Source: Dictyostelium discoideum
Taxonomy: Eukaryota
Assembly (NCBI GenBank): GCA_000004695.1
Contig: CM000153.2
Coordinates: forward strand, 128,001-192,000
Direction: 5' to 3'
DNA length: 64,000 bases
A program made the position numbers and the translations under genes. Below the pieces are notes generated by a model. The model was not told the origin of the DNA and searched no databases. It saw only the letters and a list, made by a program, of their open reading frames with translations. Of the stretch, positions 1 to 23,575 are shown piece by piece. Numbering within the stretch: position 1 is the first letter of the stretch; every line of letters begins with the position of its first letter.

Positions 1-5086
<5,086 letters not shown>

Positions 5087-17254: not shown

Positions 17255-17984
17255 TAATTAATTAAATAATAAATTAATTAAATAATGAAAAATAAAAACT
17301 TACAGATAATGATAATAAAATATTTTTTGATTTAATATTAATACCTTGAGATTTTAAAAATAATCTCATTGCAATTTGATCATCAATACATGGGTTTAAG
17401 AAATTGATTGAATCTTGAATAAATTTAATTGTTCTTTGATTTGAACGAATGAAATAGAAACCAGCACAAATATCGTCATCATCTTGTTGAACGTATAAAT
17501 CAATGTCGTCATCGTTAGTGAATTGATTTTCTTGATTAATATCTTGATAGAAATGAATGAATGGATCTCTTTTCCAAACTATATCAGTATCAGTCCATAA
17601 TACATTATAACCTTTTTTTAAAACATCCAATACTACTAATGGTTTTTCATTACAAATCGCTCTAAATCCAATATCACCATATGACTCGGCATTTTCACTA
17701 TAAATTCCTTTATTATCGTTTGTATTATTATCATGAAAAAGTTGTGTTGATGATGTTGAAGAATTTATAATATCATCTCTTGAGAATCTTTGACACTCAA
17801 TACCTTTAAACTCTGCAAAGAATTGATATGCTTTATCATCCATACAATATAAAATGTATCTACTTTTATCAATTGATAACTTTTCAAAACATTTCAATAA
17901 ATTCAATGTCATATCTCTAAATCCATAATTACACATTAATACAATCTTATCATTTTCTTTAATATATTCAACTTTTTTTTCCAT
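15804..17984 (-). CDS. agtA: Fusion of a GT77-family glycosyltransferase with a WD40 beta-propeller, of about 653 aa. It matches the architecture and size of Dictyostelium AgtA, the Skp1 alpha-galactosyltransferase. Exons are join(15804..16277,16374..17180,17304..17984).
   Basis: Exon 1 (MEKKVEYIKENDKIVLMCNYGF...LWTDTDIVW...ICAGFYFIRSNQRT...) is a nucleotide-diphospho-sugar transferase (GT77 / Nucleotid_trans) domain. It ends at a phase-0 GTAAGT donor after ...KNILLSLS. The next exon begins directly after the acceptor TATAG at 17181 and contains no in-frame ATG. It therefore cannot start a gene and must be an internal exon. The downstream exons encode WD40 repeats (GHTGIINQLIVIP...TCSDDNTIRQFDL; GHNGWVSSIAI...SCSNDGTIRFWDI; GGNDGTIKIWS). 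Published AgtA is 648 aa with exactly this domain order. Confidence 0.75.
17184..17250. repeat. (TAA)n microsatellite forming most of the agtA intron 17181..17303.
   Basis: ataataataat... lies between the acceptor TATAG at 17181/17182 and the donor GTAAGT at 17298..17303. Confidence 0.9.
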
Positions 17985-18069
17985 GTTTTTTGGGTATAAA
18001 AAAAAAAAAAAAAAAAACAATTACAAAAAAATGATAAACAATTAAATTCTAAAAATAAAAATTTTTATC

Positions 18070-18100
<31 letters not shown>

Positions 18101-18173
18101 TATTTTTTCATCCAAAATGCAAAATTTATATTTTTTTTAAAAAAAAAAAAAAGAAAAAAAAAGAAAAGAAAAA

Positions 18174-18336
18174 ACTCCTCTTTACCAAAAGTAATAAAAA
18201 AAAAATTAAAGTTATTATTAAAAAAAATAATAAACCGATAAAAAAAAAAAAAAAAAAAAAACTCCTCTTTAATTTTTTTTTTTATTACTTTTGGTAAAGT
18301 TATTATTAAAAAAAATAATAAAACGATAAAAAAAAA
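18174..18336. repeat. Two tandem copies of about 75 bp in which a central segment of about 30 bp is inverted between copies.
   Basis: Copy A at 18174..18248 is actcctCTTTAccaaaagtaataaaaaaaaaattAAAGttattattaaaaaaaataataaaccgataaaaaaa. Copy B at 18261..18336 is actcctCTTTAatttttttttttattacttttggTAAAGttattattaaaaaaaataataaaacgataaaaaaa. The segment between the short inverted repeats CTTTA/TAAAG is in reverse-complement orientation in copy B. Confidence 0.85.
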
Positions 18337-19250
18337 AAAAAAATTCAGACGTTTTGTGTGTCTTTTGGCTTAAAATAAAATTTTCAGTGTAAAAACATTA
18401 TTATTTTGTTAAAAAACATTATTAAAAAAAATCTTTTATCATGTAGCTAAGTTGTGTTGGCATCATTATCGTTTTTTCAGGTAAAAAAAAGCCTTATAAA
18501 AAAAAAAACAATTCTTTTAATTTTATTTTAATTTTTATTTTAATTAAATTTTTATTTTTAATTTTAATTTTAATTTTAATTTTTTTTTTATTTTTTTTTT
18601 TTTTTTTTTATTTTTTTTTTATTTTTTTTTTTCATTTAATATATCAATAATAATATTTTATCGAGAAACCACTTTTTAAAATAATTTATTTCTTTTTTTT
18701 TTTTTTTTTTTTTTTTTTTCATTTAATATATCAATAATAATATTTTAATTAAATTTAATTTTTTTTTATTTTTTTATTTTTCTTTTTTTTAAACTATATC
18801 TATCATTTATAAAAACTATTTTTTTTTTCGATTTATATTTATAATTTTAATATATCAACAATTATTTTAAATTATTTTCCATTAATAATAAGAAATTTTC
18901 CAAATTTAGAAAATCACAAATTTTAATTTCAATTTTTTTTTTTTTTATTTTATTTTTTTAATTACAAAACACCAATTTTTATAATTTTTAAAAATCACTT
19001 TAAACAATTTTATTATTATTATTATTTTTTTTTTAACCACCCCCAAAAAAAAAAAAAATATAATTATTCTCTTTCTTTTTTTTTTTTCTTCAACACTCTC
19101 GCACACATAATTTAATTTATCTGTTATCTTTTCGTGTCATATAATTTATCATTATTAAATAATTAATAATAATAATAAATAAATAATTAAATAAATAAAT
19201 AAATAAATAATAATTTTTTATTACGTATATACACATAATATAAATTTTCC

Positions 19251-19287
<37 letters not shown>

Positions 19288-19312
19288 ATTTAAAAAATAT
19301 AACAATAAAAAA

Positions 19313-20900
19313 ATGGAGGCAGCAACAAATACTTTAAGATCAATGTTTCCAAAGAGTTCAGCAGACCAATGTGTTTCTGCATTAAAAGTTAATAATTGGG
19401 ATTTAAGTGCAACTATTGACTATATGTTAGCACAAACTGCAACTGAGGAACAACAAGTTCAACAACAAGTCCAACAACAAGTTAACCCTTCAATTCCACC
19501 ACCACCACCACCACAAACAATTCCACCACCATTACCAGCCAATGTAATTGAATCTGAAGAGGATAAATTATTAAAAGAATTTTTATTCCTTGAACAACAA
19601 ATACACATTAATAGAATTCCAACTCCACCACCATACAATCCTTCAACAAACAACATTAAACCATCAATTGCTGTAGTTGAAAAGGTTGAGCCAATTTCAA
19701 TTCCACCACCACCTCCACTACCACAACCAATTGTTCATGAACATCAACCACAACAAGAACAACAACAAGAACAACAACAAGAACAACAAGAAAAACAAGA
19801 GGAAGAACCAAAAACTAGAGAAAATAATAGTTTATTAAGAAATATTACAAATACTCTTAAAGAATTGGAAAATGAAGTTAGAAATTTAGTTATGGAAAAG
19901 AAACCACAACCAAATGTTGTTGAAACTGTTGAAACTACTGAAACCGTTATCTCAAATAATAACAACAACAATGACAATGTTGAAAATATTGCTCAAAATA
20001 ATATCGAACAATTAGTTGAAAAAGTTGAACAAGAACAACAAGAACAAGAAGAAGAACAAGAAGAAGAACAAGAAGAAGAACAAGAAAATAATGAAAACAA
20101 TAATAACAACAATAGTCAAATACCAAATGAAGTTAAAGTTGCAATCGATCAATTGGAATCATTATTTAACTCTTCATTAGAAAAAACTGAAAAGATTTTA
20201 AATGAATTAAAAGAAGAAATTACAAGTTGGAAAATTAAAGATAATGTTAAAACTTTCACCGTTACCGTTAGAAATGAATTATCTGATATGTTGGCCTCTT
20301 TAGCAAACTATATCTCACCAGAACAAACTGTAAATACTCAAGAAGAAATTGAAACTGGTTTAATTTAAACTTTGATTTTCAATATCATCATTATTTATTG
20401 TTGTTGTTCTTTTTATTTTCCTCTTTTCTATTTTTTTATGTACCTTTAACTCTTATTTATTTGGATTAAAATAGTTTGGTCTCTTTTTATTTCCTCTTTA
20501 AACTACTTTCTATCTCAACATAAAAAAAAAAAAAATAATAAAAAACTTTCTTCCATATACTACTTTCTATCCACTTCCTTTCTAAACTTTTTTTTTTTAA
20601 GATATAGTTCTCTCCCCTTTATAATTTTCCAATTTTATTGTTCTTTTTTTTTTACTAATAATAATCTTTTTTTTAAAATTTTTTTAGCAAGTTCAAATTC
20701 AAAGAAAGGAAGCAAAAAGACAAGAATTAGAGAATAAATTAAAAGAATTAAAGGAACATAATAGAAATTTAGAAGAGGAAAGAAGAATTGCAATTGAAAA
20801 GATTGAAAATAAATATAAACAACAAACAACAACTACAACCTCTTCTGGTAATCAAATTCCACCACCACCACCATATCCAGAAGAAAATTCTGAACAATAA
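19313..20900 (+). CDS. CUE-domain protein with Pro-rich and Glu/Gln-rich coiled-coil regions. Proposed exons are join(19313..20329,20688..20900). The alternative is the unspliced ORF 19313..20368.
   Basis: The N-terminus TLRSMFPKSSADQCVSALKVNNWDLSATIDYMLAQ has the CUE MFP motif. The ORF 20688..20900 has no start codon and encodes QVQIQRKEAKRQELENKLKELKEHNRNLEEERRIAIEKIENKYKQQ...PPPPPYPEENSEQ. It begins right after a polypyrimidine tract plus AG. A phase-0 GTAAAT donor after ...ISPEQT at 20329 joins it in frame to exon 1. Confidence 0.6.
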
Positions 20901-21066: not shown

Positions 21067-23575
21067 TTATCTAGTAATTGTATATTTATTATTACCACTT
21101 TTTAAAATCATTCCTTGATTATTTAAACCTTCTAAAACATCATTAAAATTTTCAAAAGGTAATTTATATTCTTTAACAATTTGTAAGAGTTCTTGTTTTG
21201 AAAAAGTTGATGTACCAGTTTTTGAGGCTTCTTTATTGAAAATTGAAATATATTTTTTAGATAAACCACTTTTACTCATACCAGTGGCTCTTCTAAAATC
21301 AATATTACCATGTTCATCTTCAAAAGTATCCAAAAGTGAATCTCTCATAATCTCTACGATATCGATTGCATCTTGTTCTGTAACGGTTTCACGTAATTCA
21401 AGTTTTGCTCTTGCTTCTGCTAAACGAATTAATGATTCCAATTGACGAGTTGTAACTGGCATTGAATCAGAACCTGTAGATTTTGAACGAAGTTCTAAAT
21501 AAAATTTTTGTATAACTTTAATTGCCTCTTCTGAAAGTCTTGGTGAAACATATTTCTTTGCATAACTTATATATTTTCTAAGGATAACTGTTGGAATTAA
21601 ATTAATCTCTTGACCATGAGTTATTAATAATTTTTGTTTTAATGGTAATGATTTATCATGATCTTCTTCATGAGTATATTGAGATGAATTTGTTGTTGCC
21701 GAGGATGATGATGATGATTGTTGAGGTTTTCTTTTTTTAACGCCTGATCCATTTGAATGAAGATTTAAAATATTATGAGAGATAATATGATCCTTTTCAG
21801 TGTTTGGTTTATCCATTAAAATGAAAATTAAATCGAATCTACTGAGTAGTGGTGCACTCATTTTGATATTTTCTGAAACTGTCTTTGCACGATTATAATG
21901 ACCCCCGACTGGATTAGCAGCAGCAACTACAGATGTACGAGCTGGTAAATTACAAACAATACCAGCCTTTGCAATACTAACCGATTGTTGTTCCATTGCT
22001 TCGAGTAGAGCAGGATGTTCATCTGTCATCTTATCGAATTCATCTATACAACAACAACCTTGATCCGCCAATACCAAAGCACCAGCTTCAATTGCAAAAT
22101 CACCTGAACCTTTTTCTCTTAACAATGTTACAGTTAAACCTGTTGTACTTGAATAGCCACCACAAACATAAACACCACGAGGTGATAAATGATAGATCGA
22201 TGTTAACATTTGACTTTTACCTAAACCAGGATCACCAACAATTAAAACATGTGGATCCGATCTAATTGATAGTTTATTCTTGTCGGATCCATTACTACTT
22301 CTATTTGGACTACCACCAAACAAAGCCAATGTTAAACCTGCTTTAACCAATTCATGCCCATAGATGGTTGGACAAATTGAATTTGAAATTAATTTGAAAA
22401 TATTTGGATGTTCAGCAATCTCTTTAATACCATACATATCCTTTAAAGAGAAGGAGGTAGTTTCAATCTTTCCTCCATTGCCACTAGTTCTCTTTGGGGA
22501 ATCTATAGAGTTTACATCTATATAAATGAGGAAAACAGGTTTATTTTGATTTTGAAAACCTGTTTCCTCTGCTCTTAATACTTTTACAACACCACTAATG
22601 GTCACAATATCGCCAGGTACAATAGTTTCAACCATTTCATCGGTGATTTCACATTCAAATGCTTTTGGTATACCACTTGATTCCTTTTGGTCGGCATCCT
22701 CTTGAATTCTAATTTTTTGCCAATCTATAGTGACGGCGGTTGATCTATCCGGTTCGAATATTTTACCTCTACAACCATGATTTAAACAATTTGAAGGAAA
22801 TGTAACTTTTCCCTCTGTAAAATATTGTGTTGGTGTACGTGTTGAACATTTATTACAAATGAATTGCATTTGAGTTACCAATGGTTTAACATTACCAACA
22901 CGAATTACAGTACCTTTTAATGAAACAAATTTATCAATAAGATTTGCTTTCAATTTCTTTAATTGTAATAATGGTTCAAAATGAAATATCCTTATATTTA
23001 TCTTTTTCTTTGGTCTTTGACTCTCTGAAACATTTTCATATAATACTTGATAAATTACAACACCTAAACAATTAATTACCATTTCTGAATCATCTCTTAA
23101 TCTAATTTCAAATTGATCTTCTACTCTATAAATTTGATTTTTTAATAATTGATAATCTAATGGTATTGTATTATTTTCATCTGGTGCATAAAGTGTCTAA
23201 AATAATAATTTTAATTAATTTAATAAATCAATTAATAATTTTTGTATTATTTAATTTTTATCTTACCTCATTACAAACATCTCTAAAAAGTGGAAGTGAT
23301 AATTGAATGAATTGATGTCTCTTTTCAAGTATTGCCTCTTGATTTAATTTTTCATCACCATTTTCAATAATTTTATTTGTTTTTGGTGGGAAATATAGTT
23401 TATATCCAATTAACTCATCCAATTGCGGATGTTGTTGTTGTTGCTGCTGTTGTTGACTTTGTTCTCTTTGTATAGTTTGTTGAGATTTAAATTGGACATA
23501 GTCATCACCTTCACTATTATTTCTTCGAATAATTTGTGTATTTGTGTTATTATTATTATTATTATTATTATACAT
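21067..23575 (-). CDS. mcm8: DNA helicase MCM8 (MCM family AAA+). Exons are join(21067..23196,23267..23575), with intron 23197..23266 (GTAAGA...TTTAG, phase 0).
   Basis: LIVGDPGLGKSQML...GVYVCGGYSSTTGLTVTL...SGDFAIEAGALVLADQGCCCIDEFDKMTDEHPALLEAMEQQSVSIAKAGIVCNLPARTSVVAAANPVGGHYNRAKTVSENIKMSAPLLSRFDL is almost residue-for-residue human MCM8. It has Walker A, Walker B and the arginine finger. An N-terminal Zn-finger/OB region (CNKCSTRTP...CLNHGC) and C-terminal winged-helix region are present. Exon 1 adds a 103-aa low-complexity N-terminus. Confidence 0.85.

Follow-up and report, generated by a model that had tools for sequence, protein, structure and literature searches.

Divergent genes and the tandem units between them

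The window, by which we mean the whole 64-kb stretch of Dictyostelium discoideum DNA that was analysed, is 79% AT, and the genes around the locus described here are of GT77-WD40, CUE, MCM8-like and SNARE-like type. The first two are transcribed divergently from a spacer of about 1.3 kb. The minus-strand gene, which starts at 17984, encodes a GT77 nucleotide-sugar transferase domain (PF03407, E 3.7e-22), and its orthologue in another D. discoideum locus (L001) also has WD40 propeller families. We take the combination of GT77 with WD40 repeats to be the architecture of AgtA. The AgtA protein is the terminal Skp1 glycosyltransferase (PMC9485057). On the plus strand, the open reading frame at 19313-20368 has relatives in D. 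purpureum and Heterostelium that are annotated as CUE-domain proteins; Pfam, at E up to 0.01, detected no CUE domain in this frame. It runs for 351 aa to the first stop, against 412-421 aa in the annotated relatives, and the similarity stops near residue 339. Since the similarity ends there and the relatives are longer, there is probably an intron near 20330 and a further exon. Between the D. discoideum comparators and the window, the CUE protein is 94% identical, the differences being mainly indels in Q/E/P/N repeats.

A sequence-only reading of the window had placed a duplication with an internal inversion in the spacer of these divergent agtA-like and CUE-like genes, a placement borne out by the GT77 and WD40 architecture on one side and the CUE-annotated relatives on the other. 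Sequence reading and alignment of the units show about 87 bases of AT-rich spacer DNA lying between the two genes as head-to-tail tandem copies. Measured from the start codons, they lie 189-359 bp upstream of agtA and about 970 bp upstream of the CUE gene. The features of the region are as follows.

18139-18172, plus strand: A-rich run upstream of the duplicated unit, candidate misalignment site
18173-18259, plus strand: unit 1, AACTCCT-CTTTA-CCAAAAGTAATAAAAAAAAAAT-TAAAG-TTATTATTAAAAAAAATAATAAACCGAT-A22
18180-18211, plus strand: B segment in the ancestral orientation, CTTTA-CCAAAAGTAATA10T-TAAAG, with 5-bp arms and a 22-nt spacer
18212-18233 and again 18300-18321, plus strand: small internal hairpin of the C-part, TTATTATT-A8-TAATAA
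18240-18261, plus strand: A22 run at the junction of units 1 and 2
18260-18343, plus strand: unit 2, AACTCCT-CTTTA-ATTTTTTTTTTTATTACTTTTGG-TAAAG-TTATTATTAAAAAAAATAATAAAACGAT-A16
18267-18299, plus strand: B' segment (the microinversion), CTTTA-AT11ATTACTTTTGG-TAAAG, the reverse complement of B with one additional homopolymer base

Unit 1 consists of an A-part (AACTCCTCTTTA), a B-part in the ancestral A-rich orientation, a C-part (TTATTATTA8TAATAAACCGAT) and the A22 tail. Unit 2 has the same A- and C-parts, a reverse-complemented B-part and an A16 tail, which closes the unit at 18328-18343; it adjoins a conserved block, TTCAGACG, and its C-part, AATAAAACGAT, is the same as in locus L004 and in D. 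citrinum. The head-to-tail copies have their boundaries in a shared repeat, namely the A-runs at 18139-18172, 18240-18261 and 18328-18343, as is characteristic of a tandem duplication by slippage or unequal exchange.

When the two units were aligned globally in direct orientation, the outer parts matched and the middle did not, and therefore simple direct repeats were not recovered. Once the CTTTA..TAAAG segment of unit 2 was reverse-complemented, only three points of difference were left: one homopolymer base (A10 vs T11), a single CC/AC substitution (AAACCGAT vs AAAACGAT) and unequal poly(A) tails (A22 in unit 1, A16 in unit 2). This realignment confirms the earlier claim that one copy is inverted between CTTTA and TAAAG, which directly abut the flipped spacer in both units. 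The dimensions given with that claim need to be corrected: the tandem period is 87 bp rather than 75 bp (with non-poly(A) cores of 67/68 bp), and the flipped spacer between the 5-bp inverted repeats measures 22/23 bp, or 32/33 bp with its arms, rather than 30 bp. The two units had also been described as identical outside the flip, which is nearly so, save for the three differences above. Together, the B segment (18180-18211) as the left arm and the B' segment (18267-18299) as the right arm make up a new, near-perfect inverted repeat of 32/33 bp with a 54-nt spacer, which the relatives do not possess.

Single-unit relatives and the polarity of the change

Comparator loci were found through a search with the CUE protein: L001 and L006 from D. 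discoideum GCA_054859355.1, L004 and L005 from D. discoideum GCA_054859385.1, and L002 and L003 from D. citrinum. A single unit is present in all four orthologous loci, and CTCCTCTTTA occurs once per D. discoideum locus. Both L001, which reads A-run-AACTCCTCTTTACCAAAAGTAATAAAAAAAAAAAAGTTATTATTAAAAAAAACGAT-A13-CATTCAGACG, and L004, which reads AACTCCTCTTTACCAATTCAAAAAAATAAAAAAAAAAAAGTTATTATTAAAAAAAATAATAAAACGAT, carry it in the orientation of unit 1. In D. citrinum the end of the C-part (AAAATAATAAAACGAT) and the downstream blocks are conserved and the B region resists alignment. Within the unit, conservation is lowest in the B-part (CCAAAAGTAAT in L001, CCAATTCAAAAAAAT in L004), and the C-part end AATAATAAAACGAT is conserved together with the blocks that follow it. 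Because the relatives have a single unit, and in D. discoideum one in the unit-1 orientation, both the duplication and the inversion are derived and belong to the window lineage. The sequence-only reading had seen in the structure a recombination footprint and had proposed a comparison with other strains; in two D. discoideum and two D. citrinum assemblies the duplicated and inverted state has no counterpart, which makes it a derived footprint of rearrangement.

We also compared the MCM8-like open reading frame (21067-23082), counting substitutions only. The window differs from L005 and L006 by 2.0-2.1%, these two differ from each other by 1.1%, and any of the three D. discoideum sequences differs from D. 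citrinum by 8.3-8.9%. These values give the tree ((L005,L006),window),D. citrinum, which places the gain on the window branch. With comparators at 2% coding divergence and about 90% raw identity to the window (blastn, gaps included), the timing of the event is coarse. Over window positions 9000-31000, the divergence of GCA_054859385.1 and GCA_054859355.1 from the window is about 2% in coding sequence and about 8-11% overall with gaps, which seems large for conspecific strains.

Unit 2 stands at the ancestral position with the ancestral C-part, and unit 1 has the ancestral B orientation. The arms that were already present in L001 and L004 are CTTT/AAAG. The 'TT' that gives the arm TAAAG (AAAATTAAAG in the window vs AAAAAAAAAG in L001/L004) occurs in mirror form in both units, and it is either older than both events or was homogenised later.

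The two events might also be placed in the reverse order. In that scenario, the microinversion came first, as a polymorphism of a single-copy unit, and an unequal crossover at poly(A) between a B and a B' allele, for example in the sexual macrocyst cycle, then gave an array with one copy per orientation. On one hand, the CC/AC substitution, the homopolymer base and the tail length could be former allelic differences, and the poly(A) boundaries fit unequal exchange. On the other hand, no single-copy B' allele was found among the four comparators, and mutation after the duplication in slippage-prone runs explains the differences equally well (PMC7466956). We regard this order as rather unlikely, and infer that duplication preceded inversion.

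An observation on the outgroup should be added here. In D. citrinum (L002 3135-3195, L003 3100-3160) there is a sequence, CCTTTTTTGATAAGAGG, that is the reverse complement of a motif resembling CCTCTTTACCAAAAG of D. discoideum, and it lies inside a block flanked by GAAAT/ATTTC. Composition-aware local alignment gave a weak signal for the CCTCTTTACCAAAAG motif (CCTCTT..CAAAA) in opposite orientation, with p of 0.03-0.15 against shuffles. This block may represent an older, larger inversion of the same region; if the motif is truly reversed, flipping of this region would be recurrent.

Rarity of the inverted match and neighbouring rearrangements

Minus-strand self-comparison of the 64-kb window, for arms of 20 nt or more that contain at least 4 G/C and lie no more than 1 kb apart, returned a single inverted repeat once TAC and GAT microsatellites were set aside: the exact 26-nt match between 18180-18205 and 18274-18299. 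An exact 20-mer scan gave one locus in the window against a mean of 0.02 in 60 third-order Markov simulations, and thus the match exceeds chance. In a minus-strand blastn-short comparison, 18273-18299 matched L006 8991-9017 at 27/27 positions on the minus strand, with its flanks on the plus strand. This was the sole complex local minus-strand match over about 21.6 kb of window against L006 (hits close to the collinear diagonal that contain 3 or more G/C, AAT-type low-complexity matches set aside). A single inversion in a comparison of this length indicates that microinversions are infrequent in the neighbourhood. No further copy of B was found in the 64-kb window with three mismatches allowed, nor in the orthologous loci of about 21 kb. 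A search of metagenomes and of bacterial and archaeal genomes for the pattern CTCCTCTTTA-N(18-28)-AAAGTTATTATTAAAA gave nothing beyond chance matches in Flavobacteriaceae.

A near-perfect inverted repeat of 32/33 bp around a 54-nt spacer could be taken as the mark of a miniature inverted-repeat transposable element, with B and B' as its terminal repeats, or of a site-specific invertible switch. However, the sites in the relatives are not 'empty': they hold a complete A-B-C unit, and therefore insertion cannot account for the structure. The flanks (CTCCT and TTATT) form no target-site duplication, and with B having no other copies in the window or the orthologous loci, a transposable element was ruled out. 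As for a switch, the repeats bounding the flip are only 5 bp long, the two orientations reside in two different fixed copies and there is no recombinase gene nearby, so an enzymatic invertible switch was likewise rejected. We assign next to no probability to either of these ideas. The sequence-only reading holds as to an inversion bounded by short inverted repeats, but 'flip-flop' in the sense of an active or reversible switch is not supported by repeats of 5 bp and orientations in separate copies. Plastid non-coding DNA offers a parallel in its hairpin-loop 'flip-flop' inversions, in which one locus has flipped repeatedly and homoplasiously across taxa. Shared with the present case are AT-rich non-coding surroundings and a short loop that occurs in both orientations between small inverted repeats; the difference is that the two orientations observed here occupy two copies of one tandem array.

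One could suspect an artefact of cloning or assembly in the source sequence, since cloning hosts do not stably maintain AT-rich Dictyostelium DNA or inverted repeats. Against this, the whole structure spans about 170 bp, which is shorter than one read, artefacts usually delete exact inverted repeats rather than create them, and small differences between units are typical of real divergence. An artefact is, in our opinion, most improbable.

The tandem units are not the only peculiarity of the spacer. Several further changes are specific to the window, the first of them as follows.

18636-18654, plus strand: insertion of 18-19 bp, window only, identical to 18723-18741, 87 bp downstream

This insertion, missing from all four relatives, is the second duplication to which the sequence-only reading had drawn attention, and it was recovered here as a T-run followed by CATTTAATATATCAATAATAATATTTTA at about 18631 and 18718, 87 bp apart. 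The inserted block, TTAATATATCAATAATAA(T), comes after a T-run and CAT, and by its sequence the insertion looks like a templated, conversion-like event. A third relative, TTTTAATATATCAACAATTATTTTA at about 18846-18870, is conserved and common to all five sequences. Just upstream of the agtA start, at 18005-18023, the window has a 19-bp insertion (an A-run and CAATTAC) relative to L001 and L004, and this insertion belongs to a 10-bp periodic array, AAAAACAATT x3.3, at 18013-18046. About 55 bp, GAAATAAAAATAAAAGAAATAAAAATAAAAGAGAATATTCTTTTTTTGCGTTA, present in L001 at 2892-2947 and in L004 at 2880-2935, are missing at about 18165-18172 of the window; in both other D. discoideum assemblies these bases adjoin the poly(A) of the unit on its upstream side, and their loss may or may not be tied to the duplication event. 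Locus L001 has itself lost TAATAAAA from the C-part (L001 3020-3036), apparently by slippage within the A-run, and this loss abolished the internal hairpin. Small structural changes are frequent within this 1.3-kb spacer.

The position of the lost 55 bp bears on whether everything happened at once. The duplication and the inversion, perhaps along with that loss, would then go back to one complex event during replication, with serial template switching as in FoSTeS or MMBIR. The upstream copy does lie roughly where the missing bases of L001 and L004 stood, and MMBIR has been proposed for microinversions with short arms (PMC8755829). Nevertheless, at least three or four switches would be required, the units are slightly diverged, and the other independent small rearrangements in the spacer indicate that separate events are common here. 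A single event thus appears unlikely to us.

Proposed origin, the new hairpin and its meaning

The reading that we prefer, and consider to be highly probable, is that of a neutral scar of mutation, confined to one lineage and lying in AT-rich intergenic DNA that evolves fast, which took at least two steps to form. In the first step, the block of about 87 bp between poly(A) runs would have been tandemly duplicated by replication slippage or unequal exchange at misaligned poly(A) tracts. The A-runs bounding the unit are natural substrates for slipped or unequal alignment, and in D. discoideum indels arise about twice as often as base substitutions, A:T homopolymers being hotspots (PMC7466956). 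In the second step, the 22-23-nt spacer between CTTTA and TAAAG of the downstream copy would have been swapped for its reverse complement, probably through a short-range replication template switch, in which the nascent strand leaves for the complementary strand at one arm and comes back at the other; in the four-point model this would be a '1-3-2-4' in-place inversion. An equivalent route would be copying of the complement of the upstream unit. Since after the duplication an identical B lies 87 bp upstream, the product of such copying is indistinguishable from that of an in-place flip, and microhomology-mediated break repair would give the same product as well.

The segment has the properties of the microinversion class, being an exact reverse complement with collinear flanks, with inverted repeats at both breakpoints and a derived state. 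Published work on microinversions of this kind leans towards replication template switching or microhomology-mediated break-induced replication and away from classical recombination (PMC5453318, PMC8755829, PMC8604942). Comparing humans with chimpanzees, Potapova, Kondrashov & Mirkin (2022) identified 59 microinversions 17-33 nt long; each had flanking inverted repeats, of 3-75 nt, and in 28 of them the arms were 4-7 nt long (PMC8755829). Our case resembles theirs in the precise reverse complement, in its size of 22-23 nt (32-33 nt with arms) and in the inverted repeats that abut the inversion, whose 5 nt fall into their 'intermediate, 4-7 nt' class. It differs in that the host is an amoebozoan and the window 79% AT, and in that the inversion occurred inside one copy of a recent tandem duplication, so that the ancestral orientation was kept 87 bp away and a long inverted repeat was created as well. 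The same authors argue that microhomology-mediated break-induced replication explains short arms better (PMC8755829). For a classical hairpin-guided switch, five-base arms around 22-23 nt of spacer are short, and MMBIR is equally compatible here.

Comparison with template-switch mutations leads to a similar picture. In-place inversion of the '1-3-2-4' type makes up 45% of high-confidence human-chimp template-switch events (PMC5453318), and in yeast, intermolecular template switching was shown to flip what lies between the two arms of an inverted repeat (PMC8604942). As in the mutations described by Löytynoja & Goldman (2017, PMC5453318), the product here corresponds to an in-place inversion of that type or to a complementary-strand copy of a neighbouring repeat, and the switch points coincide with inverted microhomology, as they do in this class (PMC5453318, PMC8604942; Ripley 1982 quasipalindrome model). 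Unlike the yeast coding cases (Abraham & Hazkani-Covo 2021, PMC8604942), with arms of >9 bp and spacers of 2-5 bp, the arms here are 5 bp and the spacer is 22-23 nt. A literature search returned nothing specific on template switching in Dictyostelium, and the mechanism that we suggest is drawn from the anatomy of the locus combined with the studies cited above.

Another consequence of the inversion is a strongly folding stem. The predicted folding energies are listed below.

Window 18165-18345, single-stranded DNA: -28.5 kcal/mol, z -6.4
Window 18175-18305, RNA, plus strand: -30 kcal/mol, z -7.7
Window 18175-18305, RNA, minus strand: -33.5 kcal/mol, z -5.1
L001 single-unit region, RNA: -1.7 kcal/mol, not significant
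L004 single-unit region, RNA: -2.9 kcal/mol, weak (z -2.5; 10/200 shuffles fold as well)

It was plausible to ask whether such a structure is used, either as an orientation-independent duplicated promoter element or as a hairpin (a small-RNA precursor, or a structural or regulatory element for agtA). The position about 190-360 bp upstream of the agtA ATG and the strength of the hairpin in comparison with the relatives both speak for a function, and new hairpins and miRNAs are known to arise by template switching (PMC8794818; bioRxiv 10.1101/2023.04.19.537475). However, Rfam gave no match in 17900-19400 at E up to 1, the B/B' arms were not found in the supplements of an Amoebozoa miRNA survey (PMC11014262), and a search for the arm sequence in full-text literature matched only unrelated primers. 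With no Rfam family and no miRNA of that survey's supplements matched, a known structured RNA or miRNA precursor was rejected as a candidate. Moreover, conservation of the B-part fails already between L001 and L004, and the structure is confined to one lineage. We found no evidence of function, including any effect on agtA or the CUE gene, and a functional element seems to us very unlikely. Our case for neutrality comes from a single observation, the lack of conservation, and an effect on agtA expression from this distance is possible.

As with the de novo hairpins of Mönttinen & Löytynoja (2022, PMC8794818; 10.1101/2023.04.19.537475), one event yielded a long near-perfect stem that is new in comparison to the relatives. 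In contrast to those cases, no sign of transcription or processing of the stem was found here, with neither Rfam nor the miRNA supplements providing a match. An expressed newborn hairpin would be the only non-trivial possibility. In this scenario, to which we give only a slight chance, the inversion supplied, in one step and in one lineage, a 33-bp stem that may be a newborn Dicer-like substrate (a small-RNA or miRNA locus) or an element altering agtA. The former holds only if the region is transcribed. If true, it would be a regulatory novelty caught in the act, arising from a template switch inside a tandem duplication.

Returning to the scar that we consider highly probable, the duplication combined with the microinversion is a new instance of well-known mutation types. 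Its value as an illustration comes from the ancestral and flipped versions lying side by side: because the event struck one copy of a fresh tandem duplication, no outgroup is needed to locate the breakpoints at the 5-bp inverted repeats or to see how precise the flip is. The case suggests that the Dictyostelium genome, extremely AT-rich as it is, undergoes short-range template switching or microhomology-mediated repair, and that one such event can yield a long hairpin-forming inverted repeat. In strain comparisons, microinversions of this type are easily mistaken for clusters of substitutions.

Two other parts of the spacer deserve mention. In the window at 18344-18500, the GC-richer blocks TTCAGACGTTTTGTGTGTCTTTTGGCTTAAAATAAAATTTTCAGTGTAAAA and CATGTAGCTAAGTTGTGTTGGCATCATTATCGTTTTTTCAGG are conserved between D. 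discoideum and D. citrinum in what is otherwise unalignable AT-rich spacer; neither had an Rfam match, and by their conservation they are candidates for genuine regulatory elements. Farther towards the CUE gene, the window at 19035-19050 reads AACCACCCCCAAAA, L001 (about 3727-3742) and L004 (about 3709-3722) read AACCACCCACAAAA, and D. citrinum reads AACCACCCACTT. About 45-60 nt downstream of the ACCCACAA site there is a conserved block, CTTCAACACTCTCGCACACATAATTTAATTTATCTG, which matched no Rfam family. In the form found in L001 and L004, ACCCACAA is presumably the DUSE consensus ([AT]CCCA[CT]AA), which is found upstream of Dictyostelium ncRNA genes.
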